DNA of 54,847 nt from Gammaproteobacteria bacterium UBA3498 (GTDB taxonomy: Bacteria; Pseudomonadota; Gammaproteobacteria; Pseudomonadales; Pseudohongiellaceae), in assembly GCA_002377605.1 (NCBI GenBank), contig DFQD01000096.1, positions 1 through 54,847 on the forward strand, read 5' to 3'. Made by a program: the position numbers and the translations under genes. Every line of letters starts with the position of its first letter. Within the stretch, counting starts at the first letter, position 1. The notes under the pieces were generated by a model. It was not told the DNA's origin and ran no database searches. It was given only the letters and a program-made list of their open reading frames with translations. Below, piece after piece: positions 2,779 through 53,628 of the stretch.

Positions 2779-4530
2779 TTATTCCTGATAGTCGGTTTGT
2801 TCACCTTCACGCGCATCGAGTGTACGCGCAGCACTTAAAGTATTAGTCATACCATAATTGCCTTCGTGGCATGCATACTCAACAAGCTCATATTGACTAT
2901 CGTCTCTTATGAAATTGAACATACCACTCCAGGGTTCGGTCCACACAGCTGGATCTTCAACTGTAAATTCATAGCGCAAAGTATCAGGACCGGTGCGAGT
3001 AAAACGCTGAGTTAACCTCATATCGGCACTGGATCCGAGATAAGAAGTTCTACCATTAAGATTTCTCACTTCAATTACTAGCGTGTCACCTTCCCAACGA
3101 CCATGAGAATCTCCAAGCCAAGTTTTAAGTCCATCACCAAAACCTTCGCGAGGCTCAGTAGAAATGATTCGAGTTTCATGAATCATTTCTTTTTGAATCG
3201 CGATGTTGCCTGGACTCTGAATAATCTGTAGACCGTTGTTATAAATACTTGGCATCATCATGCCAACTGGCCCACGAGTTATGCAGCGCACATAAGTACC
3301 TAAGTCTTCAGGTGTTCTGGCACGCTGTGGTGGAATTCTTGGTGGCGCATTGGCAACTAATTGCTTATACGCCTCAGTCGTTTCAGGCAATTGTCCGTTT
3401 GGCGGATCAATAATCATTGCCGCCTGCGTGGAAGGCGCAGACCTTACATAACCCAGGGTAGTATCACGCCATTCCCGATCGTAACCCCAGATACTGTTTA
3501 GTGTTCCTCTTTCACGACGCGCGGCTGCTTCCTCCGGAGTTAATTCTCCAGCCTCACCAGCGCCGACACCCCGCTGCAAGGGAATACCATGTGCTGCATC
3601 GGCAGTCCAGATACCTTGGAAATCTGGCTCACCCCAAGGTGTTCTTGGCACAACGTAAAGTTCTTCAGAATCACTGTTGTCTGCGGTGAATGCTTCTTCC
3701 TCGATTCCTTCCCAACCCGGTTCTACAACAGCGATCATCACGCCATCAGGTCCAAGAATGAAAGCCTGCTTAGCGTCAGAGCGGCCACGCTCTGGAACCA
3801 TAGGGTCCTGTCGAAAATCAACATTGAGTTGGTTCATTTCTGCAGCAGTTGCATCCAAATCCGCCACCTGGAAACCAATATGATCGATAGTTCGACCCTG
3901 AGTAATACCTGGTCGACCGTCGTTAAATTGGGTTGCCAGTAGCCAGATATCGCCGAAGCGGACGCCGTCTAACATGCCTTTCAAGCTTTCACGTTCACCA
4001 CCTAGCACTTGGTTATACCAATCAAGTGCCGCCACTGCATCGACTGAATTCAAATGGATGTGATGAAACCCAATTACAGCATCATCCTGCACCAATTCGA
4101 TTTTAGTTCCCCATGGATCGGTGATGAAAGCGATCTTAAATAGCCCAGGTATATCGCGAACCAAAGCGCCGTCATCGAATCGAATCAAACGAACTCCAGA
4201 GCCACGTACACCTACTGACTCAAGTTCAGCCATTTTCGCGTCGAGATCAGGTACAGAAAAACCAATATGATCGACAGCAGAACCCTGACTCCCGCCAACT
4301 GTTCGACCTACGAAAAACTCGATATTGGTTTCACCACAAACAACTGCATCGTTTCTGCCAACTACTCTTTCACAATCCAAATACTCTTCATACCAACTCA
4401 CTGCCTCGTTGGTGCTGGAAAGTGCTATCTGAATGTGGTTTGGAGTAGCGGCATTAAGTGCGAATGGAAACGCTATTACTATAGCAACGATTAGCTTAAT
4501 GCTACTTAGGTTTATGGAACGACACTTCAT
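2779..4530 (-). CDS. Exported fusion protein: two VOC/glyoxalase-type modules plus a C-terminal domain of the uncharacterised PDLQGVW/ACHEGNY family (copy 1)
   Basis: Start placed at ATG 4530 (MKCRSINL...), with GGAGG 8 nt upstream; the track start at 4545 lies upstream of that RBS. Signal peptide ...AFPFALNA. Duplicated VOC signature DHIGFSVPDLDA / DHIGFQVADLDA. Then PDFQGIW, YVRCITRG, QIIQ, RWEGDTLVIEVRN, QRFTR, DPAVWTEPW, VEYACHEGNYGM. Confidence 0.8.
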   Translation of the reverse strand: MKCRSINLSSIKLIVAIVIAFPFALNAATPNHIQIALSSTNEAVSWYEEYLDCERVVGRNDAVVCGETNIEFFVGRTVGGSQGSAVDHIGFSVPDLDAKMAELESVGVRGSGVRLIRFDDGALVRDIPGLFKIAFITDPWGTKIELVQDDAVIGFHHIHLNSVDAVAALDWYNQVLGGERESLKGMLDGVRFGDIWLLATQFNDGRPGITQGRTIDHIGFQVADLDATAAEMNQLNVDFRQDPMVPERGRSDAKQAFILGPDGVMIAVVEPGWEGIEEEAFTADNSDSEELYVVPRTPWGEPDFQGIWTADAAHGIPLQRGVGAGEAGELTPEEAAARRERGTLNSIWGYDREWRDTTLGYVRSAPSTQAAMIIDPPNGQLPETTEAYKQLVANAPPRIPPQRARTPEDLGTYVRCITRGPVGMMMPSIYNNGLQIIQSPGNIAIQKEMIHETRIISTEPREGFGDGLKTWLGDSHGRWEGDTLVIEVRNLNGRTSYLGSSADMRLTQRFTRTGPDTLRYEFTVEDPAVWTEPWSGMFNFIRDDSQYELVEYACHEGNYGMTNTLSAARTLDAREGEQTDYQE

Positions 4531-4594
4531 GGTGCGAACCTCCAATTGGTTAGTCTTTATGCTTTTAAATTCCGTTAAGCTTGAACAATTGTTT

Positions 4595-5425
4595 TTAATC
4601 TTCCGATTCTTCTCTTTTCATTAAATGACCGTACAAAATCTCTTCAGAGAATTCGACGCATTTGTATTCTATTACTCGCGCATTTGGTTCAAGACGTCGA
4701 TATAAAGGCATACGAATTTGCCAAGGGCGAGTAAAAACTGTTGGGTCTTCGATTGTTGCCTCATATAACATAGCATCGGCACTGATTGGCGTGTAGCGTT
4801 CAGTCACAATCAGTGAACTGCTGGCAAAGTTTCCTGCTCGGTCAAACCAGGCTTCGCCATAAAATCCCCGAGCATCTACTACTAATGTATTGCCTTCCCA
4901 ATGACCATGGGAACGACCCATCCAGGTATCTAATGGAGCCGGTTCCGGATTTTCTACATTCATATGAATAGTGCGATTCGCTTCGGCAAACCCATAAACA
5001 ATCATCATCTTGTCGGTGCCTTGCAGAATTTGAAAGGGGTAGGGCAAGTACGTGGCTCGAGGTACTCCGGGTAAATAACACTTGGTTTCAGGATCACCAG
5101 TAGGCCTGCTATCCCAGTTGGCCTGCTTTTGTTCCAGGGCCCAATCCTGATAAGGAATCTCTCCTCCTACAACAACGCCCTGGCCAGGAGGCACTGCACC
5201 TATTGCGCCCATTTCTGGTAACCCTGCACTAGCTTCATGGTCCTGAAGATCCCAGTGGGCAGTGCCTATCGCCTGCCAAACACCGTTGATATCGGGGTTG
5301 CCATCCCAGGCTAGTTCAGGTTGGTAGTTACCGATCTCCTGCGCTATAGCTGAAATGCTCAAAAGGGAAGCAGCAAGAAACGCCTTGAAAGAAAGGAAAA
5401 CAGTGGGCTTAAGTCGAATTATCAT
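4595..5425 (-). CDS. Exported protein, short divergent member of the same uncharacterised family (copy 2)
   Basis: 276 aa. Signal peptide ...SISAIAQE. Motifs PDINGVW, ETKCYLPGVPR, FQILQ, HWEGNTLVVDARGF, ERYTP, DPTVFTRPW, and C-terminal IEYKCVEF in place of ACHEGNY. Confidence 0.75.
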   Translation of the reverse strand: MIIRLKPTVFLSFKAFLAASLLSISAIAQEIGNYQPELAWDGNPDINGVWQAIGTAHWDLQDHEASAGLPEMGAIGAVPPGQGVVVGGEIPYQDWALEQKQANWDSRPTGDPETKCYLPGVPRATYLPYPFQILQGTDKMMIVYGFAEANRTIHMNVENPEPAPLDTWMGRSHGHWEGNTLVVDARGFYGEAWFDRAGNFASSSLIVTERYTPISADAMLYEATIEDPTVFTRPWQIRMPLYRRLEPNARVIEYKCVEFSEEILYGHLMKREESED

Positions 5426-5707
5426 TAGCGAGCCCCATCTTTTTAATTGTTATATTTAAGGAATAGTTGCTTGGAATTCTCCCAGCTAGCCAGCGGAGGG
5501 TCAAGCGACGTAAGTGCCGGTTTTATCGGGCGTTTGCCCTAAATTCAAGCAGGGGAAGACAATAGAATGAAGACAAATCAAGATCAGCGTTGAGAGTTAG
5601 GGACGCACCTTGATGCGATCAGAAAGCTAGTTAGTGGTATTGCATGCAACGATTGGTAATATAAAAACTCCAGTTAAGGCCACATAAAAAGATAGGCCCT
5701 AAAGAGC

Positions 5708-5741
5708 AAAGGGCCAGAGTAAAAAATTACTCTGGCCCTTT
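5708..5741 (-). terminator. Rho-independent terminator downstream of the Ior-like operon (sequence is compatible with bidirectional use)
   Basis: AAAGGGCCAGAGTA-AAAAAT-TACTCTGGCCCTTT gives an 11-bp GC-rich core stem extendable to 14 bp with a 6-nt loop. It starts about 18 nt after the stop at 5756. A T-run follows on both strands. Confidence 0.8.
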
Positions 5742-5755
5742 TGTAGTTACGGTAT

Positions 5756-8020
5756 TTAAGCAACGTCGCCAGTTTCTTCAACCCGAAAATCCAGATCAAA
5801 GTTTTTTAGCGGCAGTTGGCGTACACGAATACCTGTTGCATCGAAAACAGCGTTGGCTAATGCTGGTCCGATACCAGGAGTACCTGGCTCACCAGCTCCG
5901 CCAATATCATTCCCACTGTTTATAACATGAGTTTCAATTTTAGGTGCCTGGTTCATTCTTACTGATGGGTAATCATGGAAGTTACTCTGCACAACTGCAC
6001 CATCCTCGATCGTTATCTCACCGAATAGTGCCGCAGTAAGCCCATAGATAATTCCGGACTCTAACTGAGCAGCTATACCATCAGGCGCAACTGCTAAACC
6101 AGGATCAATCACAGCGACAACGCGGTCTACTGCAACTTCTCCATTATTAATTGTTACTTCCACCACCTGCGCAACTAGAGAACCGAAAGATTCTTGCAGA
6201 GAAATTCCTCGTCCACGCCCTGCGGGCAGCATTCTATTCCATCCCGCTTCTTCAGCAGCTTTAGCTAACACTGCTAAGTGTCGAGGACTGTCTTTCAGGA
6301 GCTCCGCACGAAACTCGAATGGATCTTTTTCCGCCGCATGGGCTGCTTCATCGATAAACGATTCAGTAAAGAAACCATGTTGGGAATGATCCACACTGCG
6401 CCATGCGCCAAATGGAACATGAGTCGGGCTACTGACATAACCTATGTCCTGTGCCGGGACTGCATAAGGAATCAATGGTGCTTCGACTGGCTCATTCTTG
6501 TTGGTGTAAGTATTTTCCCAAGCGAGTATATTGTTATCCGCATCAAATGCTGCCCGGAATCGACTCTGCACCGCTGGGCGGTAAAAATCCTGCCGCACAT
6601 CTTCTTCTCGTGACCAAATCAATTGTACTGGTCGGCCAACTGCCTGTGAAATTTGCGCAGCTTGAATAGCATAGTCAGGACGAGCCTTGCGGCCAAATCC
6701 TCCTCCCATAGCATGGTTATGAAGAGTAACGGCCTCTTCTTCCAAGCCAAGAACGACAGCAACATCCCGACGAAATCCGAGAGGATTCTGACAACCTACC
6801 CAAACTTCAGCGTTACCGTCTCTAACATTTGCAGTGGCGTTTAATGGCTCCATACAGGTGTGCGCCAGATAAGGAACATGATAGTCAGCATCTATAATCT
6901 TGGCTGCTGTTGCGAATACCGAATCAGTTTCGCCTTCTACGCGATCCGTCTGACGTTCTATTCTTGAAGTAATATCGCGATCAAATTGTGCAAAGATGCT
7001 ATCACTGGAAACAGATTCAAATCCTGTTTTACTCCACTGCACATCAAGTTCCTTGATGGCTAAGTTAGCCGTCCAATAACTATCCGCCACAACAGCCACG
7101 GTTTCACCAGAATAGGTACCACCAAACGCATTTCCTATTGTAGATGCAGGAATCTTAATAACATCTACAACTCCGTCGATTGCAAGCGCCGCTGCTTTAT
7201 CAAAAAGTACTACACTGCCACCCGAAACGGGGGAGCGAATAACTGATGCATACAGCATGTCCGGTAGACGAACATCCAATGCAAACTTTAATGAACCATC
7301 AACCTTCGCCGGAATGTCGCGGCGTGGTTTATGAGTACCAACGATCTTGTAGTCTGAAGGATCTTTAAAAGTTGGTGTTTGCGAAGGAGTCATTTCTGCA
7401 ATGGTTGATGCAAATGTTGCATATGGCTCCCTTCTATTAGTTACTGCGTGAATTAGGTAACTATTTTCGGTCGTTACTTCACTAATTGGGACACCCCAAA
7501 AACTTGCTGCAGCTTCCTCCAACATTTCTCTTGTCGCCGCACCTGCAATGCGCATAGCTAGTGCTCCAGTTGTACGAACACTCATACTGCCGCCAGTAAT
7601 TTGCATGTTGAGTGAATCCGCAACCCGCATCATGGCGCCATCAACTGTAGGAATTAAGATTTCTGGAAAATCTATCCCGGCTAAAAGATAGCGACGACCT
7701 GCTGAATAGGTTGAGTACTCACCTAAAGCAGGCGCTTCTTCCGTAAGTAGGTTTTCCCAATCTGCATCTAGCTCTTCTGCGAGCATCTGACCTAATGCAG
7801 TTTGCACTCCCTGACCCATTTCAGAGTGAGGAATGATTGCGGTAATAGTATTGTCGGTGTCGATCTTGACGTAAGAGTGGACTAATTGGCCGCCTTCTTC
7901 TCCTACTTTGCCAGCCAGATCTTTAATCTGATTGCCGGGTCGCAAGGCAACACCCACAATAACTCCACCACCGGCAACTAAACCAGTTGTTATAAATGCG
8001 CGTCTGGTCCACTTACCCAT
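5756..8020 (-). CDS. Xanthine dehydrogenase/aldehyde oxidase family molybdopterin-binding subunit (isoquinoline 1-oxidoreductase beta-like), Tat-exported
   Basis: Start placed at ATG 8020 ([20 protein letters not shown] = twin-arginine signal), with GGAGGTGG just upstream. It overlaps the small-subunit stop by 8 nt (ATGGGTAA). Large Mo-binding subunit-like sequence throughout. Confidence 0.85.
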
Positions 8021-8537
8021 GATCCACCTCCGTCGCATCCTCTGCACTAGCTACATCGTAAAAAAGTTTTTCATCCGAAGAAGCAACGCCAACAGATTTA
8101 ATCGCATTACGAATTCGGCCGTACATACCGCAACGACAAATATTCCCCTGCATGGCGGCGTCGATATCAGCATCAGTCGGATTAGGATTATTGGCAATCA
8201 GTGCCGAGGCGGACATTATTTGTCCAGACTGACAGTAGCCACACTGTGGTACCTGATTATCAATCCATGCTCGCTGCACGGGATGTAATTCGCCATCAGC
8301 TGAAGCGATCCCCTCGATCGTCGTAACTTCTCTTCCTTCGACTGAAGAAATTGGTGTGACACAAGACCGCACTGGCTGGCCATCGATATGAACAGTACAA
8401 GCACCGCATTCGGCAATACCACACCCAAATTTTGTTCCGGTGAGTCCTAGCTGCTCACGAATCACCCACAACAACGGTTTAGATGGATCCACATCCACCG
8501 TTTGCTGTATGCGATTTACTCTAAAAGTCGTACTCAT
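8013..8537 (-). CDS. (2Fe-2S)-binding small subunit of the Mo-hydroxylase (IorA-like)
   Basis: Cys clusters [11 protein letters not shown] and [10 protein letters not shown]...CRCGMY. The track start at 8549 is TTG. ATG at 8537 (MSTTFRV) has GGAG 6 nt upstream. Confidence 0.9.
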
Positions 8538-8674
8538 CAAATTCTCCAACAGCCGAATTAAAAAAAGATTAAACTAGCCCAAACGCTAAGGCGCCGGGAT
8601 TATCAGGGATTTAGCTACTGAAAACAAATTAGAAATTCACTAATTGATTTCTTAACGGGCTTTTTTCTTATGAA

Positions 8675-10213: not shown

Positions 10214-10236
10214 TCGAATAATTTTTACATTTATAA

Positions 10237-10275: not shown

Positions 10276-10290
10276 ACTTATTAGTATTGT

Positions 10291-11674: not shown

Positions 11675-12559
11675 ATGCTAAGAATCAATAATCTCAGTAA
11701 AACTTATAGTAACGGCGTTAAAGCATTAAGCGAAGTGAGCCTCCAAATTTCACAGGGTATGTTTGGGCTTCTGGGGCCAAATGGAGCCGGAAAATCAACC
11801 TTGATGCGCACGCTTGCTACCCTTCAGGACGCTGACGAAGGCACTGCTTTTCTTGAAGATGTTGACATCCTAAATGACAAGGAATCCCTCCGTCAGGTAC
11901 TTGGCTACCTGCCACAAGAGTTTGGAACCTATCCCCGAATTTCTGCACGGAGAATGCTAGATCATTTTGCCGTCCTTAAGGGAATCTCTAACAGAAGTGA
12001 AAGAAAGGAACTTGTCGATCACCTTATGAACCAGGTGAACCTATGGCACGTGCGCGATACGGCTGTGAGCACTTATTCCGGCGGCATGAAACAAAGATTC
12101 GGCATTGCCCAAGCCTTAATTGGTAATCCTCAACTTTTAATTGTCGATGAACCTACCGCTGGACTAGATCCGGAGGAGCGACGTAGATTTCACAATCTAC
12201 TTGCCGACATTGGCGAAGACACAGTTGTGATTCTTTCTACTCATATTGTTGATGATGTCAGCGACCTTTGCTCTGACATGGCCATCATGGGCGGAGGAAG
12301 AATTCTATTAAAGGGGCATCCTGCTGAGGTAATTGATCATTTGCAAGGTTCAATCTATGCCAAGTTAATTAATCGTAATGAAGTAGAAGACTATGAAGAA
12401 AGACATCGAGTACTCTTTTCAACATTGGTTGGAGGCCGCACAAAAATACACATTCTGAGCGAACAAGATCCAGGTAACGGGTTTGAAGCGATGAGCCCCA
12501 ACTTGGAGAGTGTCTATTTCGCCACTCTACGCGACCACGAAATTCAAATCACTGTTTAA
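11675..12559 (+). CDS. ABC transporter ATP-binding protein
   Basis: Walker A GPNGAGKST, signature YSGGMKQR, Walker B LLIVDEPTAGLD. Confidence 0.92.
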   Translation: MLRINNLSKTYSNGVKALSEVSLQISQGMFGLLGPNGAGKSTLMRTLATLQDADEGTAFLEDVDILNDKESLRQVLGYLPQEFGTYPRISARRMLDHFAVLKGISNRSERKELVDHLMNQVNLWHVRDTAVSTYSGGMKQRFGIAQALIGNPQLLIVDEPTAGLDPEERRRFHNLLADIGEDTVVILSTHIVDDVSDLCSDMAIMGGGRILLKGHPAEVIDHLQGSIYAKLINRNEVEDYEERHRVLFSTLVGGRTKIHILSEQDPGNGFEAMSPNLESVYFATLRDHEIQITV

Positions 12560-12588
12560 ATGGAAAGCCCTCCAGAAAATCTCTAATC

Positions 12589-15500
12589 ATGTTTGCTGAA
12601 ATTTTTAAATTTGAACTTAGGTATCATGCAAGACAGCCACTGGTTTATGTCATATCTGCCGTATTATTTTTGCTTAATTTTGGTGCCACTGTCTCTGACA
12701 ATATTTCAATCGGCGGCACCCTTACCAACATAAATATCAATTCGCCTTTCAATATCATTATCGTATTAGCCAACACTAGCTTTTTTACCTCGTTGTTTGC
12801 AGGCGTTGCTTATGCCTCAAGTCCAGCGTTAAGAGATTTTGATCACAATATTGCTGAAATTTTCTTAACAACCCGAGTAAAGAAATTTGATTATCTTTTT
12901 GGGCGATTTTGTGGAGCGCTCATTTTTTGTTTTATTGTGTATCTTACAGCGGCTTTTGGCATTTTCCTCGGAGAGTTTATGCCTTGGATCGACCCAGACC
13001 GCTTAGGACCATTACGACTTGATGCTTATTGGTTTGCCACCTGGGCAATTGCTTTACCAAATATATTGATGATGGCAGCTTTAGTTTTTCTTATTGCCAC
13101 TTTAACTCGCAGTCTTCTGGCAAGCTTCCTGACACTGTTTCTTATTTTAGTAGTTCAGTCAGTAGTCGGTTCACTAGTTGATCCGGAAGATATTCGCTTG
13201 TTAAGCCTATTGGATCCTTTTGGCTTGGTAGCGTTATCGGATACTGCTCGTTATTGGACACCATTCCAAATGAATGAACAGATCATGCCAGTTACAGGTA
13301 ACTTTCTATATAACCGGCTAATTGTGCTTGTATTTATGTCAACATTTACTTTGGCTGCTTATCACTATTTTACTTTTTCGTTGGATTTCGCTACGGAAAA
13401 GACAAAATTCAAGAAATTTTTTACAAGCTTTAAAAAGCAGAAGAAAATTATCGAACCAATTTCTTCTTTAACAACCCCTATTTCAGTTAATCACCGTTTT
13501 GGGTTCACTTCCCAAATTCTACAATTTATTTCTCAGCTTCGAATAGAGTTCTACAGCATCATAATCGGTAAAGCATTTTTAATGATCGCTTTGTTTGGCA
13601 TGGTTCAGGTGGCTGGTACCGCCTACTTTGGTCTAGGCGGAATTTATGGCACAGAAGTATATCCTACGACTACATATATGGTGTCAATCATCAATAGCAG
13701 TTACACGCTCCCTTTAATTTTGGTACTGATTTTCTATTCCTCAGAGCTAATGGTGCGGGAAGACAACATGCAAATCTCTGAGATGGTTGATGCTATGCCG
13801 TATCCAAATTGGGTCGCAATAAGTGCGAAACTTGTTGGGTTGATGCTCGTCATGGCGGCAATGCTGTTCGCAGCGATGATAGCGGCGATAGTTGTGCAGG
13901 CGCTAAAAGGATATTTTGATTTTAATTTCTTACAATACTTTTTGGGATTGTTCTCTTTCTTTCAATTTCCAATCTGGTTTACCTGCGTTTTTGCTGTGTT
14001 CGCGCATGTCGTTGCGGGTAATCGCTATATTGGCATGTTTGTCGTATTACTGTACTTTGCAGGTAGCTTGATACTTCCGCAGCAAGGGTTTGATCACAAC
14101 CTTTATCTTTTTGCCACTCCTCAGATTCCTTATTCGGTATTCACGGGTTTTGGGCCAAATCTGAGCGCATATGTTTGGTTTTCTATTTATTGGACAATAT
14201 TCTGTGGAATGCTCTTGATAATAATGAATTTGCTTTGGCAACGAGGCAGTGAGCATAAAAACCGCTTCTCTTGGAAAAGCTTAAAGCAGCGTTTTACGCC
14301 AATTATTGCCACTACAATCCTTGCTTTTTTTACAGCATTTGTGGCCACTGGAAGTTATATCTTTTACAACACAAACATTCTCAACAAGAAACGCAGTGCC
14401 CTGGATGTAGAAGCTGATATCGCTGCCTATGAAAGGAGCTATAAGCAATATGAAGACCAGCTTTTTCCAGATCTCGTCAACATGTATGCCGAAGTGGACA
14501 TCTATCCGGAGGACAAGGAAGCGTTTGTTTATGGCAGGTACACTTTGCAAAACAATTTTAATGAACCAATTTCAGAGCTTCATTTCACGATTCCACCAAA
14601 TATCACTCTAACTAGTCTAGAAGTTCCTGATTCGGAGGTTACTCATAGCGATACTCAGCTCGGCTATTATATTTATGTATTAAATCAACCCATGCAGTCA
14701 GGCGATTCATTTGATGTAAATTTTCAAGTGGAATGGCTTACGCCAGGATTTGTAAACAATAACCCAAACACGCGATTACTAAGTAACGGTACGTTTTTTA
14801 ACAACATCGAAGCTTTTCCCTTACCTGGTTATTCAAAAGAATCAGAGTTGATTGATAACAATCGCCGGCGCCGTTATGACTTACCTCCAGCAGAACGAGT
14901 TGCCAAGATTGATGACGAAAGCAAACATGATGAAGGTTTTGGAACTATTCGCATGCGAGCTGGGTATGAAGCAATTGTTAGTACCTCGCATGATCAGATA
15001 GCGGTCACCCCTGGTTATCTTGAAAGAGAATGGGAACAAAATGGCCGCCGCTATTTCCACTACAAGATGGATGAACCTATTTGGCCATTTGTATCATTTC
15101 TTTCCGCAGACTATGAAATGAAAGCAGACTCATGGAACGACATAGATATCGAGGTTTATTACAAGCATGGATATAACGTTGATCGCATGATTGACGCTTC
15201 TAAGAAATCGTTAGATTATTTCACAAAAAATTTTAGCCCTTATCAATATCGTCAATATCGAATTTTTGAGTTCCCTCGGCAACGAGGCTCATTTGCCCAA
15301 TCATTCCCTAACACTATTCCATTTTCAGAAAACATTGGTTTTGTCGCTGATATACGGGACCCAGCAGATATCGACTCAGTGTTTTACGTTACTGCACATG
15401 AGCTCGCTCATCAGTGGTGGGGGCACCAGGTTTCGGGTGCAAACGTTCAAGGCGGAGCAATGATACTAGAAACGCTCTCGCAATATTCAGCCCTGATGGT

Positions 15501-16188
15501 TATGGAGCAAGAATATGGCCAAGCTCATATGCAGCGATTTCTAAATTATGAACTGGATAGTTATCTTAGTGGTCGAGGAGCAGAAGTGTTAGAAGAACTT
15601 CCGCTAATGTTAGTGGAGAATCAAGGCTACATTCACTATCGAAAAGGCAGCTTGGTGTTATATGCCTTAAAAGATTATTTAGGAGCAGATACAGTTAATA
15701 GGATCTTAAGTGAGTTTATTGATGAATGGGGATTTCAGGGACCACCTTATCCGACCACAAGGGATTTGATAGCAAAATTTAGAGATAACGCCGACCCTCA
15801 GTTTCAATCCGTAATCACGGATCTATTCGAAAAGATAATTATCTTCGATCTTCGTTCTGAAGATAATACATTCCAGCGGTTAGCAGATGGTCGGTTCGAA
15901 GTCACTATCAATACAACCGCGACAAAATTTGAAGCCGATGGTGGAGGGAAGGAAATTCAAGTGGATATGGAAGCACTAGTTGATGTTGCAGTGTTAGGAA
16001 AAGAGGACGAGCATACAAAAATTCCAGAAGTCCTCTACATCGCAAAACATCAAATAAATTCACACAATCAGAGTTTTACTATTACCGTAGACGGTGAACC
16101 TGAGTCCGCAGGAATCGATCCTTTTAACAAACTCATCGATAGAAACCCTGATGACAATGTGTCAAACGTCAATCCAATCGAAGATTGA
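12589..16188 (+). CDS. Fusion of a polytopic ABC-2-type permease (about the first 600 aa) with a C-terminal M1 (aminopeptidase N-like) gluzincin domain
   Basis: 1199 aa. Many hydrophobic helices up to about residue 600. Then a soluble domain with HELAHQWWGH followed about 19 residues later by E (MILETLSQY). The canonical GxMEN exopeptidase motif is not obvious (FPNTIPFSENIGF in its place). Starts 29 nt after the ATPase gene. Confidence 0.8.
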   Translation: MFAEIFKFELRYHARQPLVYVISAVLFLLNFGATVSDNISIGGTLTNININSPFNIIIVLANTSFFTSLFAGVAYASSPALRDFDHNIAEIFLTTRVKKFDYLFGRFCGALIFCFIVYLTAAFGIFLGEFMPWIDPDRLGPLRLDAYWFATWAIALPNILMMAALVFLIATLTRSLLASFLTLFLILVVQSVVGSLVDPEDIRLLSLLDPFGLVALSDTARYWTPFQMNEQIMPVTGNFLYNRLIVLVFMSTFTLAAYHYFTFSLDFATEKTKFKKFFTSFKKQKKIIEPISSLTTPISVNHRFGFTSQILQFISQLRIEFYSIIIGKAFLMIALFGMVQVAGTAYFGLGGIYGTEVYPTTTYMVSIINSSYTLPLILVLIFYSSELMVREDNMQISEMVDAMPYPNWVAISAKLVGLMLVMAAMLFAAMIAAIVVQALKGYFDFNFLQYFLGLFSFFQFPIWFTCVFAVFAHVVAGNRYIGMFVVLLYFAGSLILPQQGFDHNLYLFATPQIPYSVFTGFGPNLSAYVWFSIYWTIFCGMLLIIMNLLWQRGSEHKNRFSWKSLKQRFTPIIATTILAFFTAFVATGSYIFYNTNILNKKRSALDVEADIAAYERSYKQYEDQLFPDLVNMYAEVDIYPEDKEAFVYGRYTLQNNFNEPISELHFTIPPNITLTSLEVPDSEVTHSDTQLGYYIYVLNQPMQSGDSFDVNFQVEWLTPGFVNNNPNTRLLSNGTFFNNIEAFPLPGYSKESELIDNNRRRRYDLPPAERVAKIDDESKHDEGFGTIRMRAGYEAIVSTSHDQIAVTPGYLEREWEQNGRRYFHYKMDEPIWPFVSFLSADYEMKADSWNDIDIEVYYKHGYNVDRMIDASKKSLDYFTKNFSPYQYRQYRIFEFPRQRGSFAQSFPNTIPFSENIGFVADIRDPADIDSVFYVTAHELAHQWWGHQVSGANVQGGAMILETLSQYSALMVMEQEYGQAHMQRFLNYELDSYLSGRGAEVLEELPLMLVENQGYIHYRKGSLVLYALKDYLGADTVNRILSEFIDEWGFQGPPYPTTRDLIAKFRDNADPQFQSVITDLFEKIIIFDLRSEDNTFQRLADGRFEVTINTTATKFEADGGGKEIQVDMEALVDVAVLGKEDEHTKIPEVLYIAKHQINSHNQSFTITVDGEPESAGIDPFNKLIDRNPDDNVSNVNPIED

Positions 16189-20441: not shown

Positions 20442-23400
20442 ATGTTTGCTGCCAATTTAGTGTGCCGATTTTTTTATCTTGTTGTGTTTATTTTTTTTCT
20501 TCCATTGGCTACATCTTCTGCCAATGACTTAGTCTTAAAAGAAAACGCAGAATCATTGCAGTTCACTGTCGATGAAGGCTCTTGGGTTTCAGTAAGCTTA
20601 TTGCCAGATGGTGATTCGTTTGTTTTCGACTTGCTGGGAGACATCTATCGCTTGGGCATAGATGGCGGTGAAGCAGCAGTGATTACCCGTGGCATGGGAT
20701 TTGATTCCCAACCTGTAGTTTCTCCTGATGGCAGCAAGATCGCATTTATCAGTGATCGTGACGGCAAAGATAATCTTTGGATAACCAATATCGACGGTAG
20801 CAATCCAATTAAGTTAAGTAGCGAAACGTATGCTGCATTGATCAGTCCTACCTGGAGTCCAGATGGTCAAAACATTGTTGTCACCAAACGTGCTAGAGAA
20901 ATAGAGCTGGTGCAATTCAATTTGGACGGCGGTACTGGAGTTGTAATCGAACAGTTAGATGACGATGGCGATACAGAAAGCGCACCAGGTGTTGGAGCTG
21001 AGTTCTCACCGGATGGCAACCATCTGTATTATGCTGAGCGACTTGGAGGTCCTGATGCTCCGGTGAGTAGTTTTCCAGTCACGCAAATCGTTCGTCTCGA
21101 TTTAAGTACAGGTACAAAGATTCAGGTCACCCGAGGTGAAGGTGGCGGAGTACGGCCAATCATCTCTCCCGATGGACGCTTGATGGTTTATGGAACGCGC
21201 TTCGAAACCAACACCGGCCTAAGAGTAAGAAATCTAGAAAGTGGCGATGATCAATGGCTCACATATCCCGTGCAAAGGGATACCCAAGAAAATTTTCGTC
21301 CATCAACTCGGGGCATGTTACCTGGTTATGAGTTTACGCCGGATAGTGACGCTATCATTCTTTCCAGTAATGGTCAGTTTCAGCGCATAGAAATCGAAGA
21401 CGGGGCAAGGACAACTGTTCCCTTTACCGCAAACGTAAATCTTGAGATTGGTCCAGACTTAACTCAACACTGGCGTGTGCCAACTGACCCCTTTACTGCA
21501 ACCTTAGTACAGGATGTCGATCTCGACCCAGACAAAGAAAATTACGTCGCCAGCATAATGACCCGTCTTTACACTTTGGAAAAAGGTGACGATGAACCGG
21601 AAGAACTTACACCTGACGACATGTGGGCATTTAAACCTGTTTATTCGCCAGACGGACGCTGGATTGCATTTGTAAACTGGACAGCTAATGACGGTGGACA
21701 CATCTGGAAGATTCGCTCAAATGGTAGTAGCAATCCACAACAGTTAACCGAAAATGCTGCCTTCTATACCGACATCGTATGGCAACCCGATGGTCAAAGA
21801 GTCTGGGCATTACGCGGAAACGAATGGATGCGTCATCAGACTTATAGTGAATTCGGGGGGCTCGGTATTCCATTGGAATTGTTTTCCGTGGATGAGGACG
21901 GTGGCGATGAACAGGCCATACTGGAAATTGGAGATGCCAGGGTTCCCCACTTCGGGCCTGAAGAAGATCGCATTTACCTGACGGATGAAGGCACTTTGTT
22001 TTCAGTAAATCTGGATGGTGGCGATCGGAAAGAACATATAAAAGTAACTGGACCCAGAGGCAATCGTTTCCCGGAAGAAGCCCCTGGTGCTGAAGAACTG
22101 CGCATCTCACCGGAAGGAAATTACGTTCTTGCTCATGTCATTAAACAAGTCTTCGTTGTCGGCTTACCAAGGGTTGGGGCCGCGATTCCGGAAGTTAATG
22201 TTAGAAGCGGATCAACCCCGGTTGCCAGGCTCACAGACGTTGGTGCGGACTATATAAGTTGGAGTGATGATGGCGAAACTGTTTTATGGGCCATGGGTTC
22301 AACTGTTTACGAACGGGAATTAGATTCAATTGAATTTAGAAGTGAAGATGAAGAAAACGAAGAAGATGAATCTTTGGAAGACGAAAGCGAAGAAGAAACT
22401 CCCTTTGTTCCGCTCGATGAACACACATCAGTGAACGCAACACGGTTTACAGTTACTTTTGAGCGCGATGCTCCGGAAGGAAATTTGTTAATCAGAGGCG
22501 CCAATGTGATTGCAATGGCGGGAAGTACTCTGACCCAAATGAGCAATCCATTACAGGATCAGGATTTACTAATTACTGACAATCGCATAGCCGCAATTGG
22601 AGCCAGAGGATCTTTCGAAATTCCTGAAGAGACGGATATCGTAGAAGCATACGGCAATTGGATTATCCCGGGTATGATCGACACTCATGCCCACTGGGAG
22701 TTTCGGGCAGGAGATGTCCTGGAGCCAACCAATTGGTCTGTAGCTGTGAACCTGGCCATGGGAGTAACATCTGGGCTCGATGTACAGACATCTAATCATG
22801 ACTATTTTGTATATCGGGATATGCAACAGAGTGGACAAATGATTGGGCAACGCGCATTCATGACCGGTCCGGGAATTTTCGGTATAAATGATTTTCAAAA
22901 CTATGATGCTGTGCACAGTTACCTGCGCCGCTACAGCGATCATTACAACACACCAAACATTAAGGCCTATATTTCTGGCAACAGAGAACAACGACAATGG
23001 GTAGTTAAGGCATCAGAAGATTTAGAGCTAATGCCAACTACCGAAGGTGGCGGGGATCAGAAGCTGGACCTTACTCATGCTATCGATGGTATGCACGGCA
23101 ATGAACATAATATGCCTGACACTCCATTTTTCGATGATATTGTCCAACTCTATGCCCAAACACGTACCGCATACACTCCTACTTTAATAGTTCAATACAA
23201 CGCCGAGGGTATGCGGGAATACTTCTTTACTCGTTCAGAAGTGTATGATGATCCAAAACTACAACGTTTCTATCCTCAAAATCGTTTGGATGAATTGACT
23301 CGACGCCGTCCCGTATGGTTAAGAGATGATGAATTTCGTTTTCGGGAAGGTGCAGAGGCCGCTGCGAAAATTCAACGTGAGGGGGGATTACTAGGTGTCG

Positions 23401-32124: not shown

Positions 32125-32158
32125 GTTCAAGCAGCTAAAATTTCCTAAGGTATTCCAT

Positions 32159-34455: not shown

Positions 34456-35412
34456 TTAATGAGATTGCTCTGCTGCTTTAGCTTCTGCTTCTTGTACCCG
34501 TGCTCCCATTAGTGCTCCTGTCATGCTGTAGTTGCCTTCATGACACGCATATTCGTAGATATGCCCAGAGTCGTCCCAGGTAAATGAAAATTCTCCGCGG
34601 AATTCATCATTGTAATAAACAGGATCATTAACAGTGTATTGGTAGAACAATTCGGTTTCAGACAAACGAGTGAATCGTTCGATTACGTGAGCTTTAGAAC
34701 TAATCAGCATAGGTCGACCAGTTGCCGCTCTTTCAGGCACTGTATCGCTGTAGTGTGTTGTCTCTACAACGAGTGTTTCCCCTTCCCAACGCCCAATAGA
34801 ATGACCTTCCATTGTTCGTATAACTTCTGGCCTAGTTGCGCCGTCCATGTGAATGACTCTTAAAGGTGAATTCTCTTCCGCTACGATTGCGATCTTATCG
34901 GGAGTCTGCACAAAACCATAGAACAACTCATAGGGAAATGCGCGCATTGGTGGAGCACCCCAACCTTCAATGCATCGTTCTACTCCGGGTCGCTGCTCCG
35001 GGCCATCGAATCCGGAATTGTCCCTAAAATAACCAAACGATGAATTGGAAATACCATGCTCGTTGTAAGGTAGTACGCCATCCTCTGGATACACCAGTAC
35101 TGAAGATCGGTACTCACCCTTCACAATTGCAAGTTTTAGAGGTCCAAAAATGTCAATATCTGGATCCGTGTTTCCAGCAAATGCAGCGTCATATGTTGCT
35201 TGAGCAAATCCGCTCGCAAACTCTGGCGACACTACTAATGGCGTACCTTCATATCGCTCCAGAGGTGTGATGAAGCGTGTACTCCATACGCCCTGAAAAT
35301 CAGGCTGCCCATGTTCATTGCGCGCTACCTCGTAAATACCTTCAGACTGTGCAAAACTCAATGAGCCAAATACCAACGCTACAACTAACGCACTTGCTTT
35401 TCTAAACCGCAT
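34456..35412 (-). CDS. Exported protein of the uncharacterised PDLQGVW/ACHEGNY family (copy 4)
   Basis: 318 aa. Signal peptide ...GSLSFAQS. Motifs PDFQGVW, TPLERY, VERCIEGW, RWEGETLVVETTHY, ERFTR, DPVYY, YEYACHEGNYSM. Its start lies 2 nt after the stop of copy 5, so the two are probably translationally coupled. Confidence 0.8.
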   Translation of the reverse strand: MRFRKASALVVALVFGSLSFAQSEGIYEVARNEHGQPDFQGVWSTRFITPLERYEGTPLVVSPEFASGFAQATYDAAFAGNTDPDIDIFGPLKLAIVKGEYRSSVLVYPEDGVLPYNEHGISNSSFGYFRDNSGFDGPEQRPGVERCIEGWGAPPMRAFPYELFYGFVQTPDKIAIVAEENSPLRVIHMDGATRPEVIRTMEGHSIGRWEGETLVVETTHYSDTVPERAATGRPMLISSKAHVIERFTRLSETELFYQYTVNDPVYYNDEFRGEFSFTWDDSGHIYEYACHEGNYSMTGALMGARVQEAEAKAAEQSH

Positions 35413-35414: not shown

Positions 35415-36440
35415 TTAATTAATTCCTTCTGCTTCTCTTCTCTCTTCCATTCGCGCGCCACGTAACGTATTAATCATGCCGTAGTTACCTTCATGACAAG
35501 CGTATTCGTAAATCTGTCCAGCAACTTTGCTCATTGGAACAATTGCTGAAATCCTTTCCGTGTAAGTCGATGGATCTTCGACTGTGAATTCATAGTTCAC
35601 AACATCGTAAGAAACTCGGGTAAATTTTTCTGTGAGCATCATGTCGTGGTTATTACCCCTACTCTGGAAACTAGCCTGCATACCATTGAAATTCTTAGTC
35701 TGCACTACCATGGTATCGCCTTCCCAATAGCCAATAGAATCTCCCGACCACAAACGAATGTCGTCACTCAACTCTGCTTTCTCAACCAGTGGAACTATTC
35801 GGGCATCGTGTACCATCTCAGTCATGATGACGAATGTATCTCTATGTTGAATGATCTGCATATTGTTGTTGTATAGGCTAGGCTGAAATGGAGGGCCAGC
35901 ATTAAAACCAACCAAACATCTTTCCGATGTGCCACGATCTTCAGGGCCATCTTTACCAATTCCACCAACGATAAACCTTACCGGTCTCTCACCGGTGATG
36001 TCCGGACCGAGCCCACCAGCAATTACCGGATTGCCTTCAACCGCTTCCGGTAGACGACCGTTTAATGGATAGACGATATGAGAAGTACGGACGTTATCAC
36101 CTAGCGTACCCATTTCTATCCAAAACGTGTTGTAACCGCGAGGCGTTTGCCCTGAAGGCGGAGGTTCTGGATCGACAACTAGCTCGGCTTCGCGAGCATC
36201 AGCCAATGCTGTCATGCGAGCTTGTCGTTCAATCTGCTCCTGAACTTGTTCCGGCGTCAGAAATTCTTGTTCACCGAATCGTTCTGGCCTTTGCATCGGT
36301 GTGCTGGAACTGAAATTCCACACGCCCTGCAAGTCGGGCTGATCGTATTCCGTTCTGGGAACCTGGTAATCTGATTGTGCTGTAGCAGTGCCGCAGGCCA
36401 CTGCCACTGCATAAAGTAATATCAAGAATCGTAGCTTCAT
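35415..36440 (-). CDS. Exported protein of the uncharacterised PDLQGVW/ACHEGNY family (copy 5)
   Basis: 341 aa. Signal peptide ...ACGTATAQS. Motifs PDLQGVW, TPMQRP, SERCLVGF, MQIIQ, MVHDARIVPL, YWEGDTMVVQTKNFNG, EKFTR, DPSTYTE, YEYACHEGNYGM. Confidence 0.85.
   Translation of the reverse strand: MKLRFLILLYAVAVACGTATAQSDYQVPRTEYDQPDLQGVWNFSSSTPMQRPERFGEQEFLTPEQVQEQIERQARMTALADAREAELVVDPEPPPSGQTPRGYNTFWIEMGTLGDNVRTSHIVYPLNGRLPEAVEGNPVIAGGLGPDITGERPVRFIVGGIGKDGPEDRGTSERCLVGFNAGPPFQPSLYNNNMQIIQHRDTFVIMTEMVHDARIVPLVEKAELSDDIRLWSGDSIGYWEGDTMVVQTKNFNGMQASFQSRGNNHDMMLTEKFTRVSYDVVNYEFTVEDPSTYTERISAIVPMSKVAGQIYEYACHEGNYGMINTLRGARMEERREAEGIN
36313..36377 (-). repeat. Left arm of a 65-nt near-identical inverted repeat (inside the copy-5 coding 5' end)
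   Basis: Its reverse complement matches 36715-36779 at 62/65 positions, including a 47-nt perfect core (36325-36371 versus 36721-36767). Confidence 0.9.
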
Positions 36441-36648: not shown

Positions 36649-37644
36649 GTGAAAAAGTTGATCTCCTGCCTGGCAGGCGGCTTTATTGCCCTGACAAGCC
36701 CCATTCTTGTTGCTCAATCCGATTACCAGGTTCCCAGAACGGAATACGATCAGCCCGACTTGCAGGGTGTTTGGAATTTTGCTTCCCATACACCAGTGCA
36801 ACGTAACGAAAGTCTGGGGGATCGCGAGTATTTCACTACTGAAGAAAATGAAGAGAATCGTGAGCGTTCGGTTACAACTTTTGAGGCAAGAGCTGAATCT
36901 CATTTTGACGGTGTAGGTGGTTACAACTCCTTCTGGTACGAGCGCGCAACAATTGGTTACGACTTACGTACTTCATTAATAACTTACCCAGAAAATGGTC
37001 GTATTCCTCCTGCTGTAGAGGGCGCATTTATGCAAGTCGGTGGAGTTAGTCAGGATTTCCCCAGCGAAAGACCAGTACGATTTGTCGTTGGCGGAATAGC
37101 TAAAGACGGTCCGGAAGATCGAGGACTATCAGAACGTTGTATAGTCGGTTTTAATTCTGGTCCTCCTTTTATGCCCAGTGCATACAACAATAATGTGCAG
37201 CTAATTCAACATCGGAACCATGTCGTTATTCTCACAGAAATGATTCACGACGCCCGTGTAGTACCTCTCGATCGCGATCACAGTCTCACTGACGACATTC
37301 GTCTCTGGTCGGGAGACTCAAGAGGATATTGGGACGATGACACCCTTGTAGTCGAAACCAAAAACTTTAATGGTCTAACCCAAAGTTTTCTTTCTTCGCC
37401 CTATGGAGATTCTTACAACAAGTCTCTGGTGGAAAGATTCACTCGGGTAAGTGCGGACACTATTGAATATGAATTCACTATCGATGATCCAAGCACCTTT
37501 AGCGACAAAATAATAGCCATGGTCCCTATGACCAAAGTGGACGGGCTGCTGTATGAGTACTCGTGCCATGAAGGCAACTACGGAATGGCGAATATGATTC
37601 GTGGTGAACGAAGACAAGAATTGGATGCATTAGGCATTGATTAG
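36649..37644 (+). CDS. Exported protein of the uncharacterised PDLQGVW/ACHEGNY family (copy 6)
   Basis: 331 aa with a GTG start after AAAGGAG. Signal peptide ...TSPILVAQS. Motifs PDLQGVW, TPVQRN, SERCIVGF, VQLIQ, MIHDARVVPL, YWDDDTLVVETKNFNG, ERFTR, DPSTFSD, YEYSCHEGNYGM. By eye it is highly similar to copy 5 along its whole length. Confidence 0.85.
   Translation: MKKLISCLAGGFIALTSPILVAQSDYQVPRTEYDQPDLQGVWNFASHTPVQRNESLGDREYFTTEENEENRERSVTTFEARAESHFDGVGGYNSFWYERATIGYDLRTSLITYPENGRIPPAVEGAFMQVGGVSQDFPSERPVRFVVGGIAKDGPEDRGLSERCIVGFNSGPPFMPSAYNNNVQLIQHRNHVVILTEMIHDARVVPLDRDHSLTDDIRLWSGDSRGYWDDDTLVVETKNFNGLTQSFLSSPYGDSYNKSLVERFTRVSADTIEYEFTIDDPSTFSDKIIAMVPMTKVDGLLYEYSCHEGNYGMANMIRGERRQELDALGID
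36715..36780 (+). repeat. Right arm of the 65-nt inverted repeat (inside the copy-6 coding 5' end)
   Basis: CAATCCGATTACCAGGTTCCCAGAACGGAATACGATCAGCCCGACTTGCAGGGTGTTTGGAATTT. The three differences from the left arm are all synonymous third positions. Confidence 0.9.
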
Positions 37645-40802: not shown

Positions 40803-40803
40803 A

Positions 40804-45177: not shown

Positions 45178-45537
45178 GTGACAAAAAAACTACTTGTGTT
45201 GATATTTATATCATTGACCTCTCATCTAATTGTGGCTCAATCATCTGCGAATGGCGTTTGGGATTTTTCTATGGCTAGTCCAATGGGCTCTGTAAGCGCT
45301 AAGGTTACAATGATGGTTGAAGGGAACGTATTAAAGGGAGAATTCGATCTGGGCGGGGGCCGTACTTGGCCTATCGAAGAAGGCGAGGTCGACGGAAACA
45401 ACATCTCGTTTAATATTAATCGCGATGGATCTTCTATGACCTATGTTATGAGTGCCGAAGTTAATGAAGATTCTATTTCCGGAATCGCATCGGCAATGGG
45501 TACAACCGCTGAGTGGTCTATGACTCGCGCAGAATAG
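45178..45537 (+). CDS. Small exported hypothetical protein
   Basis: 119 aa with a GTG start after GGAGGAA. Signal peptide ...SHLIVAQS. No recognisable motif. Confidence 0.5.
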   Translation: MTKKLLVLIFISLTSHLIVAQSSANGVWDFSMASPMGSVSAKVTMMVEGNVLKGEFDLGGGRTWPIEEGEVDGNNISFNINRDGSSMTYVMSAEVNEDSISGIASAMGTTAEWSMTRAE

Positions 45538-46790: not shown

Positions 46791-46880
46791 TCGTTCAGTG
46801 CTGTTTAGCTCAAACAAATATTGTTTTTCATGTAAAGTAGCTATTCGAAATGGATTAAAAAAATAAAGTGGAGCCTAGCC

Positions 46881-49034: not shown

Positions 49035-49089
49035 ATGCATTTAGATTTGCTAGCAAAAACTAATTTTTCAGGCGTGGCATAATATTGCT

Positions 49090-49539: not shown

Positions 49540-49544
49540 GAAAA

Positions 49545-52429: not shown

Positions 52430-52614
52430 TAACTTTGTAGTTGCTTACGCGATCCACTTCGAAATCTAAGAATATCAAAAACATTGATAACGATCATCGT
52501 ATTCAGTGGTGAAGTTAACGCATAATTGTCACCTGTTGATGCGACATTGCGCCCCAAGTCAATAGGTTACAAAGAAGCTATAATGCACCCTGAATTTTAA
52601 TCGGTGAATTGTAT

Positions 52615-53628
52615 ATGCGGTTCCTACTAGCTCTAATACTTGGCGCTCACGTTATTGCAATTAGCCATGCAGCAACGTCAGCTGCGACTAATATCGGCTC
52701 TTCCAGCCAGGGAACCGCGCCGCTAAATGAATTTGGTCGGCCTGATTTTCAGGGCTATTGGTTCTTCGGTTCAAGAACACCTTTGCAACGCCCCTCGAAT
52801 CTGGGAGAAAAACAAACCTATACCATAGAGGAAGCCCGGGAGCTCGAACAGCGGATGCAGGAACAATTAGATCGTCAAGATGCACCGCTCGATCCTAATC
52901 GAGGCGCGCCTGAAAAAGGCGCAAGGATTGGTCAAGAAGCAGATGATGCATTTTTAGGTCACTTTGTCGAAGCGAAACTGTATCCAATCGATGGACAATA
53001 CAAAACATCGATCATAATGGATCCTCTAGACGGACGAATCCCGAGAAGAGAAGGGTTCATGGATTTTAATGCAAAGCGACGCGCCATTGGCCTAGCTGAC
53101 ACTGATGGACCTGAAGGGCAACCCTTATCTGGGAGATGTTTGATGTTTGGTGCTGCCGCTCCATCTCTTACACCGATGATGATGAACCCGAACTTACAAA
53201 TAGTTCAGACAGAAGACTATCTAATGATAATGACCGAAATGATTCATGACGCACGTATTATCAGAATTGGTGATGAACATTTCAAACATAATATTCCACA
53301 ATGGATGGGGGATTCAGTTGCCCATTGGGAAGGCGATACCTTGGTGGTTCACTCCAAAAATTTTCGACCGGAACAATCTTCTTCTCGTTCGATTATGATT
53401 TCAGAAGATTTCGAATTAATTGAGCGTTACACCTTAATTGGAGATGACGAAATTTATTATGGGTTTACGGTTCATGATGAACAAGCATATACCCAGCCAT
53501 TCAGTGGAGAACGCATACTCTCGCGCAATGCACCCGAAGAAAAAGTCTACGAGTTTGCCTGCCATGAAGGTAATTACTCTTTACCTGGCATATTGGCTGG
53601 TGCTCGACGCCTAGAAAGCGAAGAATAG
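52615..53628 (+). CDS. Exported protein of the uncharacterised PDLQGVW/ACHEGNY family (copy 7)
   Basis: Start placed at ATG 52615 (GGTGA 7 nt upstream); the track start at 52609 is TTG. Signal peptide ...AISHAATSA. Motifs PDFQGYW, TPLQRP, IIMDPLDGRIP, SGRCLMFG, LQIVQ, MIHDARIIRI, HWEGDTLVVHSKNF, ERYT, YEFACHEGNYSL. Confidence 0.8.
   Translation: MRFLLALILGAHVIAISHAATSAATNIGSSSQGTAPLNEFGRPDFQGYWFFGSRTPLQRPSNLGEKQTYTIEEARELEQRMQEQLDRQDAPLDPNRGAPEKGARIGQEADDAFLGHFVEAKLYPIDGQYKTSIIMDPLDGRIPRREGFMDFNAKRRAIGLADTDGPEGQPLSGRCLMFGAAAPSLTPMMMNPNLQIVQTEDYLMIMTEMIHDARIIRIGDEHFKHNIPQWMGDSVAHWEGDTLVVHSKNFRPEQSSSRSIMISEDFELIERYTLIGDDEIYYGFTVHDEQAYTQPFSGERILSRNAPEEKVYEFACHEGNYSLPGILAGARRLESEE

Follow-up and report, generated by a model that had tools for sequence, protein, structure and literature searches.

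Seven open reading frames (ORFs) in the 54,847-nucleotide stretch of DNA analysed here (contig DFQD01000096.1 of the gammaproteobacterial assembly GCA_002377605.1, UBA3498; hereafter the window) encode members of a single very large and nameless protein family which, judging from its signal-peptide-like N-termini, would be exported by the Sec pathway to the periplasm. Our preferred reading, held tentatively, is that these proteins would process small molecules, as enzymes and not as passive carriers, and often as heteromers. We lean towards an enzyme because charged residues are conserved across very different gene contexts, intact copies are paired with degenerate ones, the domain is fused to enzymes, and its genes have their place among those of exported catabolic enzymes.

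Seven ORFs of one family

The window was searched with a hidden Markov model (HMM) built from 150 representatives from other organisms only, so that the test is not circular. Of the 137 ORFs in the window with 60 residues or more, it matched exactly seven, with E-values from 6e-39 to 7e-114, and no further ORF was matched at E ≤ 10. These are the seven ORFs, at the same positions and on the same strands, that an earlier reading of the DNA letters (the original prediction) had grouped together, and their summed span of 7,545 nt agrees with its figure of about 7.5 kb. Pairwise identity among the copies is 24-58%, aligned across the whole shared length. The "one architecture" ascribed to them is in fact three: a VOC-fused long form (copy 1), a short form (copy 2) and a plain long form (the other five).

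Copy 1 (2779-4530, minus strand; E 9e-91) comprises a signal peptide, two VOC/glyoxalase modules (approximately 3715-4449) and a long-form family domain (approximately 2779-3681). Its N-terminal half matches PF00903 in two stretches spanning residues ~30-270 (E 1.4e-15, 58.2 bits against a cut-off of 20.6) and gives only a weak glyoxalase I match in the PDB; the family domain (residues 284-583) has no VOC match and no Pfam match of any kind. The VOC protein that had been counted among the operon neighbours is therefore the N-terminal half of copy 1 itself. Copy 2 (4595-5425, minus strand; 276 residues, E 6e-39), directly upstream of copy 1, is the short form, and lacks the N-terminal helical segment as well as three residues, H211, H316 and N319, that are considered below. 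Copy 3 (31156-32124, plus strand; 322 residues, E 5e-106) is a long form lying between genes for a 2-hydroxyacid dehydrogenase and a beta-lactamase-fold protein. Copy 5 (35415-36440, minus strand; 341 residues, E 7e-114) is a typical long form; residue numbers follow its sequence, and it is the copy that was modelled. Copy 4 (34456-35412, minus strand; 318 residues, E 1e-78), a divergent long form, starts 2 bp past the end of copy 5 and is followed by genes for an exported cupin and RidA. Copy 6 (36649-37644, plus strand; 331 residues, E 1e-110), a long form divergent from copy 5, is followed by GST and SDR genes, and copy 7 (52615-53628, plus strand; 337 residues, E 9e-100), again a long form, by a flavin-reductase-like gene. 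Alternative TTG starts would make copy 1 (from 4545) and copy 7 (from 52609) slightly longer.

Signal peptides were called by a heuristic and not by SignalP, the pattern being Lys or Arg residues, a hydrophobic 10-mer with a mean Kyte-Doolittle value of at least 2.2, and an AXA-type site judged by eye. Such an N-terminus is found in all seven copies and in 119 of 136 full-length representatives, with predicted cleavage, for example, between ATA and QSDY in copy 5 and between LVA and QSDY in copy 6. Each mature family domain in the window contains exactly two cysteines, C175 and C315, both of which are invariant family-wide. As the protein would be exported and has exactly two invariant cysteines, the pair is probably best accounted for by a single disulfide joining C175, which lies in a large insertion, to C315, where the C-terminal helix starts. 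A signal peptide on each copy and two invariant cysteines had both been foreseen in the original prediction, and a periplasmic disulfide, as it proposed, would fit these observations. Its list of shared motifs was borne out in part. PD[LFI][QN]G[VIY]W and a relaxed E[YF]xCxE are present in all seven copies, and are the only patterns common to all; the remaining literal patterns occur in three to five copies, namely ERC[ILV]/TKCY, ER[FLY]T, the long W.G..WEG..TLV pattern and [YF]E[YF][AS]CHEGNY in five each (copy 1 has VEYACHEGNY at the last of these), QI[IV]Q in four and DPxx[FWY]TxP in three.

A large family without annotation

The shared domain gave no match to Pfam-A (2025) or NCBIfam (June 2026) at E ≤ 1 in any of the seven copies, and no Pfam family was common to 107 diverse members scanned singly (E ≤ 0.1). 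Sequence-profile searches of the PDB (2026) with 7- and 107-sequence profiles returned nothing better than E ~1. All source names are "hypothetical" or blank, without Pfam domains. Keyword searches of the open-access literature found no papers on the "ACHEGNY" motif or on DUF6152, a family encoded beside copy 1, and nothing relevant on Pseudohongiella with pyrroloquinoline quinone (PQQ) or periplasmic proteins, or on lipocalin-like proteins in Acidobacteria; papers on lanthanides and PQQ made no mention of the family. The earlier statement that the family has no characterised homologue thus agrees with the Pfam, NCBIfam and PDB profile searches. The further statement that it cannot be placed holds at the level of sequence, but must be softened by a weak calycin/FABP-like fold match of the core, obtained with AlphaFold (AF2) models and Foldseek.

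A profile search of 1.84 billion representatives clustered at 50% identity returned 24,571 sequences at E ≤ 1e-3, 12,238 at E ≤ 1e-10 and 2,295 at E ≤ 1e-30. At the 90% identity level each of three word-indexed searches gave at least ~8,000 clusters, and a scan of one genome per GTDB species gave more than 582 confirmed family loci. The best 80 of these come, on the gammaproteobacterial side, from Pseudohongiella/Pseudohongiellaceae and others that include Porticoccaceae, Steroidobacter and Ca. Rariloculaceae, and on the acidobacterial side from Acidobacteriota that include Vicinamibacterales, Bryobacterales and Ca. Multivorans. Pseudohongiellaceae are the group that the window most resembles, the closest genome among the matches listed being 67% identical. 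One protein, P0002, is 95% identical to copy 5, and two metagenome contigs that carry it (L081 and L082) are syntenic with the window between 26 and 46 kb.

We regard the family, huge, nameless and without a Pfam, NCBIfam or PDB entry, as one of the larger annotation blind spots in periplasmic catabolism, because it is large, unnamed and present in multiple copies in widespread carbon-degrading lineages: the marine Pseudohongiellaceae and Porticoccaceae, and the Vicinamibacterales, Bryobacterales and Ca. Multivorans of soil and sediment. If it is an enzyme, or an obligate partner of one, then current metabolic reconstructions of these hosts omit a recurrent step. The least that further work would yield is the definition of a new domain family with three subfamily architectures.

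Old paralogues in clusters

Each of the seven copies is closer to some protein in another genome than to any of its paralogues in the window. Copy 1 is 52% identical over 577 residues to P0241, which carries the same VOC fusion, as against 35% for its best window paralogue; copy 2 is 54% identical to a Bryobacterales protein (locus L043) as against 28%; and copy 4 is 63% identical to P0209 as against 31%. Because every copy has a closer relative outside the window, we read the seven as old subfamilies that coexist and not as a recent expansion, and the lineage-specific "seven-copy expansion" of the original prediction is not upheld.

Clustering itself is common. Two or more family copies lie within ~21 kb of each other in 36 of the 80 loci. 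Only for family genes beside each other does the neighbour relation clearly depart from chance: 24 such pairs were counted where 12.3 would be expected, a number reached in 0 of 2,000 within-locus shuffles. Unlike paralogues in tandem may often work together, presumably as heteromers, with the short form, long form and DUF6152 protein as one recurrent case. The densest cluster observed, eight family genes in ~21 kb, is in a metagenome-assembled genome (MAG) of Ca. Rariloculaceae (L070, OZ245000.1). The family genes of this cluster are interleaved with at least four clear DUF6152 copies, and up to seven DUF6152 matches are present at E ≤ 1e-3.

Conserved polar residues and their loss in a short subfamily

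Conservation was assessed over 156 sequences, mostly less than 50% identical to each other. Residues conserved in at least 94% of these are G39, R51, P125, G128, P131, R174, C175, Q198, E208, R214, G233, W239, L244, V245, E271, Y283, D289, E312, C315, H316, E317, N319, L326 and R330; H211 is conserved in 83%. For the enzyme that we favour, the candidate site would be the nearly invariant polar set of E208, H211, R214, E271, Y283 and D289 together with E312-x-x-C-H316-E317-x-N319.

A short subfamily, with 11 examples including copy 2 (268-296 residues), lacks the segment around the long helix. All 11 have lost H211 (replaced by Gly, Ser or Glu), H316 (by Val, Ile or Ala) and N319 (by Val, Ala or Ser), and R174 has become Lys, or Gln in one. 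They keep C175, C315, Q198, R214, E271, R272, Y283, D289 and E312, and also E317 in the nine in which that position is aligned. Each short form adjoins a long form. The two His residues and the Asn are proposed as a candidate functional site because of this subfamily-specific loss, which suggests that they are part of a site abandoned by some paralogues. Among the window's long forms copy 4 has Ser at the H211 position; H316 and N319 are retained, so that H211 is its sole loss. The original prediction had taken the Cys-His-Glu-x-Asn cluster for a metal or catalytic site. Indirect support for a functional cluster comes from H316 and N319, lost with H211 specifically in the short subfamily, in which the Cys and Glu are kept.

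It is very unlikely that the family is already named or characterised elsewhere, or that the conserved residues merely stabilise an unusual fold, as in a structural envelope protein. A prior description would have to lie beyond the scope of the searches, which was databases dated to 2025-2026 and open-access papers by keyword; within it, the lack of any Pfam, NCBIfam or PDB match, the uniformly "hypothetical" names and the absence of papers on DUF6152 or the signature motif all speak against one. A purely structural role sits poorly with the extreme conservation of charged residues, the fusions to enzymes and the placement among catabolic operons.

Attachment of heme at the "ACH" sequence, either of c-type or through a single Cys, was considered and rejected. 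There is no CxxCH, and the motif reads E312-Y-A-C315-H316, with Glu312 in 156 of 156 sequences.

A predicted barrel with a large insertion

A first AF2 model of copy 5, made from a shallow alignment of 46 sequences, was weak, with a predicted local distance difference test score (pLDDT) of 66.5. A second model, from a more diverse alignment of 126 sequences, reached a pLDDT of 76.2 and a predicted template-modelling (TM) score of 0.76. The modelled chain has a strand at residues 39-42 (GxW), a long helix at 63-89, a poorly defined region at 141-173, eight strands between 193 and 305, and a C-terminal helix at 317-339. When compared with the PDB in Foldseek, the second model matched CRBP1, CRABP2 and FABP with E ~1e-4, target TM-scores of 0.45-0.50 and query TM-scores of ~0.22, over ~120 columns with 16-18% identity and a root-mean-square deviation of 5-6 Å. 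With the first model the matches were SAHS, FABP, UnaG and NanoLuc, and the spirocyclases OlmO and OssO came lower down. All these matches are partial, and all are to barrels of calycin type. Approximately one third of the protein as modelled thus bears a weak resemblance to a FABP-like barrel, a likeness of fold only and not of membership. Nothing in the Foldseek matches corresponds to the ~150-residue insertion or to the C-terminal helix.

On this model, the enzyme that we favour would be built on a calycin/FABP-like barrel in which strand A, carrying PDxxGxW, leads into the poorly predicted ~150-residue insertion of helix and loops, followed by the eight strands and the C-terminal helix. 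The barrel would form the ligand site, and the ligands, bound and chemically processed there, would be small and probably hydrophobic or aromatic organic compounds.

A passive periplasmic carrier of hydrophobic or amphipathic molecules (lipids, isoprenoids or aromatic breakdown products) is a possible but rather doubtful alternative. Such a protein would pass its cargo between outer-membrane transporters, periplasmic enzymes and inner-membrane transporters, and its polar residues would be structural or would anchor head groups. FABP and CRBP are carriers in the eukaryotic cytosol, and it is lipid and retinoid carriers that provide the best fold matches. In the same direction points the number of paralogues in each genome, set beside catabolic enzymes and transporters of varied kinds, and the fusions to VOC, a DUF3089 hydrolase and a lipocalin-like domain would fit a substrate-delivery module. 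Carriers with diverse ligands, however, usually vary in the pocket, whereas in this family some 20 positions with polar or charged residues reach 95% conservation or more between clusters that are mostly less than 50% identical and that occur in very different contexts. The loss of two His and an Asn in a subfamily that is always paired also looks more like a combination of active and degenerate subunits.

Several observations nevertheless weigh against an enzyme. A FABP-like barrel is typical of carriers, and so favours passive binding. Conserved residues are found on either side of the strands, so that many could be structural. With TM ≤ 0.5 the match in fold is weak, and it extends over no more than approximately one third of the protein; the model is of low confidence both at residues 311-320, the most conserved motif, and around C175. 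Alignment of profiles with hhalign gave no sign of sequence homology, with probabilities of 2.2% against a CRBP1 sequence entered by hand and 0.6% against the Lipocalin_5 (PF13924) domain of the family member P0319. Finally, gene contexts are heterogeneous, and in within-locus shuffles adjacency to PQQ-dependent dehydrogenases (p ~0.06) and to DUF6152 genes (p ~0.04) is only marginal.

A recurrent module of short form, long form and DUF6152

The two copies at the left end of the window, in the order short (copy 2) and long (copy 1), are followed by a DUF6152 gene and then by an RPE65 gene. The DUF6152 gene (2305-2736, minus strand), 42 bp downstream of copy 1, encodes 143 residues that match PF19649 with E 4e-29 and 100.9 bits (cut-off 27). 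The triad of short form, long form and DUF6152 was seen in no fewer than five loci, the window included, and in both phyla. The others are L043 (Bryobacterales), L062 (a gammaproteobacterial MAG), L083-85, which was reached through an arbitrarily chosen member, P0394, and has gaps of 11 bp and 5 bp, and L088, reached through P0452, with a 4-bp overlap and a 5-bp gap. In L083-85 and L088 the DUF6152 family is annotated beside the family genes, and looser versions of the triad, with a PQQ dehydrogenase, are found in L052, L053 and L069. We define short form, long form and DUF6152 here as a new recurrent module. In L083-L085 two tandem DUF6644 genes (11712-12698, minus strand) stand directly downstream of the triad, and another family copy, an amidohydrolase and a pair of cytochrome c and PQQ dehydrogenase genes lie within 10 kb.

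DUF6152 proteins have a signal peptide (ending SLQA in the window) followed by an invariant A↓HH[AS]F..EFD, the arrow marking predicted cleavage, and a W[IT]NPH motif (WINPH in the window). The His-His at the predicted mature N-terminus (HHAF in the window) is present in all eight aligned homologues. We take this pattern, by its sequence, to resemble a copper histidine-brace or N-terminal X-His site of the LPMO/CopC/YcnI-like kind. No relative of DUF6152 was found in the PDB.

These features bear on a second alternative, in which the long forms would bind a metal through H211, H316, E208, E317 and N319, and possibly Cys, and would serve as electron-transfer or metal-handling partners of periplasmic oxidoreductases such as PQQ dehydrogenases and Mo enzymes, with DUF6152 involved in the triad. 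We think this unlikely. The proposed ligands are indeed conserved, the His and Asn positions being those lost in short forms; DUF6152, with its invariant A↓HH[AS]F and NPH, recurs beside family genes; PQQ dehydrogenases are the commonest neighbours, often with cytochrome c genes near; and the absence of a cofactor from the model could explain its low confidence at the motif that is conserved best. Yet most family genes, including five of the seven in the window, adjoin neither DUF6152 nor a PQQ dehydrogenase, adjacency to the latter is not significant against within-locus shuffles, and there is neither a CxxCH heme motif nor anything but Glu at position 312.

More speculative still, and in our judgement quite improbable, is the idea that the tightly linked triad would form a new periplasmic metallo-enzyme complex that oxidises or cleaves hydrophobic or aromatic organic matter. 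It would consist of a catalytic long subunit (His/His/Glu/Asn), a degenerate short partner and a small copper-type protein with an N-terminal His, its hosts being abundant marine Gammaproteobacteria and soil Acidobacteriota, and the stand-alone long forms would represent a radiation to other substrates.

Fusions and gene neighbourhoods

Fusions among the representatives join the family domain to VOC modules, to a DUF3089 alpha/beta-hydrolase and, in P0319, to a Lipocalin_5 domain. In P0194 (714 residues, metagenomic) the family domain is preceded by prenyltransferase/squalene-cyclase-like repeats (PF13243, E 2e-10) in a region that also contains a CxxCH (ACVSCH), which hints at isoprenoid-type substrates. 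Two other apparent fusions with high scores, P0191 (505 residues), with an exactly repeated internal segment, and P0342 (482 residues), with a circularly permuted order, seem to have arisen in assembly or gene calling and not to be genuine architectures. The N-terminal extensions of locus ORFs of 450-1377 residues contain no Pfam domains, and are possibly over-extended calls in high-GC genomes.

The link to oxygenase and redox operons that the original prediction had drawn turned out to be loose, since the neighbours of the family are heterogeneous and include hydrolases, amidohydrolases, PQQ dehydrogenases, cupin, RidA, GST and SDR proteins. Many of the neighbours in the window carry signal peptides. 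No single kind of neighbour prevails across the 80 loci outside the window. A PQQ-dependent dehydrogenase is met most often, in 20 of 81 loci, adjacent in 10 and often on the same strand, with cytochrome c genes often near it; other recurrent neighbours are beta-lactamase-fold proteins, amidases or amidohydrolases, carboxylesterases, NHL propellers and proteins containing cytochrome c. A fixed partnership with the PQQ dehydrogenase was considered and rejected, as the 13 adjacent pairs compare with 8.4 expected in within-locus shuffles (p ~0.06).

Pfam matches identify the RPE65-type protein downstream of copies 1 and 2, beyond the DUF6152 gene, as a carotenoid or stilbene oxygenase, and place upstream of them a molybdenum (Mo)-cofactor oxidoreductase with a twin-arginine translocation (TAT) signal, its 2Fe-2S subunit and then amidohydrolases. 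The Mo-cofactor oxidoreductase pair (5756-8549, minus strand), of IorAB/aldehyde-oxidase type, has a large subunit with a twin-arginine-like RRAFITTG, and lies 330 bp upstream of the string formed by copy 2, copy 1, DUF6152 and RPE65. An aldehyde oxidase beside an oxygenase that cleaves C=C bonds would be in keeping with the breakdown of apocarotenoids or stilbenes.

The longest ORF of the beta-lactamase-fold gene next to copy 3 (32060-33283, plus strand) shares 65 nt with the end of copy 3. Gene calls on L081 and L082, the contigs with 95% identity, begin this gene later and give 374 residues, and the overlap is therefore probably an artefact of ORF calling. A scan for promoters and terminators between 30 and 39.5 kb of the window found no more sites than in shuffled sequence.

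Some further window genes, all on the plus strand, may be recorded. An exported 119-residue protein (45178-45537), whose L081 counterpart has no Pfam match on record, has a mature N-terminus, ANGVWDFSM, that echoes the strand-A motif PDLQGVWNF, and the family HMM did not detect it at E ≤ 10. An FMN-dependent alpha-hydroxy-acid dehydrogenase (26118-27332; PF01070) begins with a TAT-type signal (MTQRREFLKFLAA...), which would imply a periplasmic flavoenzyme, unusual for the alpha-hydroxy-acid dehydrogenase family. An ABC ATPase gene followed by one for a 1199-residue protein with a C-terminal peptidase M1 match (11675-16188) apparently includes a permease-aminopeptidase-like fusion. The last (20442-23744) encodes an 1100-residue exported protein with PD40/TolB-like propeller repeats and a C-terminal amidohydrolase domain.

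Comparison with known systems

ZinT/YodA is a periplasmic calycin-like barrel with a His-bound metal, and so provides a precedent for reading the conserved His residues as a metal site. It differs from the present family in being absent from the top 50 fold matches of the family models, and the two have no sequence match. Bacterial lipocalin-like domains such as Lipocalin_5 share with the family an exported or periplasmic beta-barrel and an N-terminal G-x-W strand. By sequence, no match to PF00061 was obtained from the seven copies at E ≤ 1 or from 107 members at E ≤ 0.1, nor to any Lipocalin-clan Pfam family from any of the 107. The calycin-like spirocyclases OlmO and OssO match the first model weakly (probability 0.66-0.84, target TM-score 0.34-0.42) and without sequence similarity. 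They illustrate that calycin-type barrels can be catalytic without cofactors, but they are cytoplasmic biosynthetic proteins.

The intracellular lipid-binding proteins (FABP, CRBP and CRABP) resemble the family in the order of their elements, a GxW strand followed by an inserted helical lid and then a run of antiparallel strands, and the family sequence has a W-[DE]-G-D-x-L hairpin comparable to that of CRBP1. Their barrel has ten strands, with a helix-turn-helix lid between strands A and B; the AF2 model of copy 5 has strand A and eight further strands. Intracellular lipid-binding proteins differ from the family in several respects. They are cytosolic and of ~135 residues, whereas the family would be exported, and its long forms have 320-340 residues (276-583 for the window ORFs). 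In place of the helix-turn-helix lid the family has the ~150-residue insertion, and to the barrel it adds a helix at the C-terminus, two invariant Cys and a large set of invariant polar residues. The family matches nothing described by sequence, and by fold it is an elaborated calycin-like barrel.

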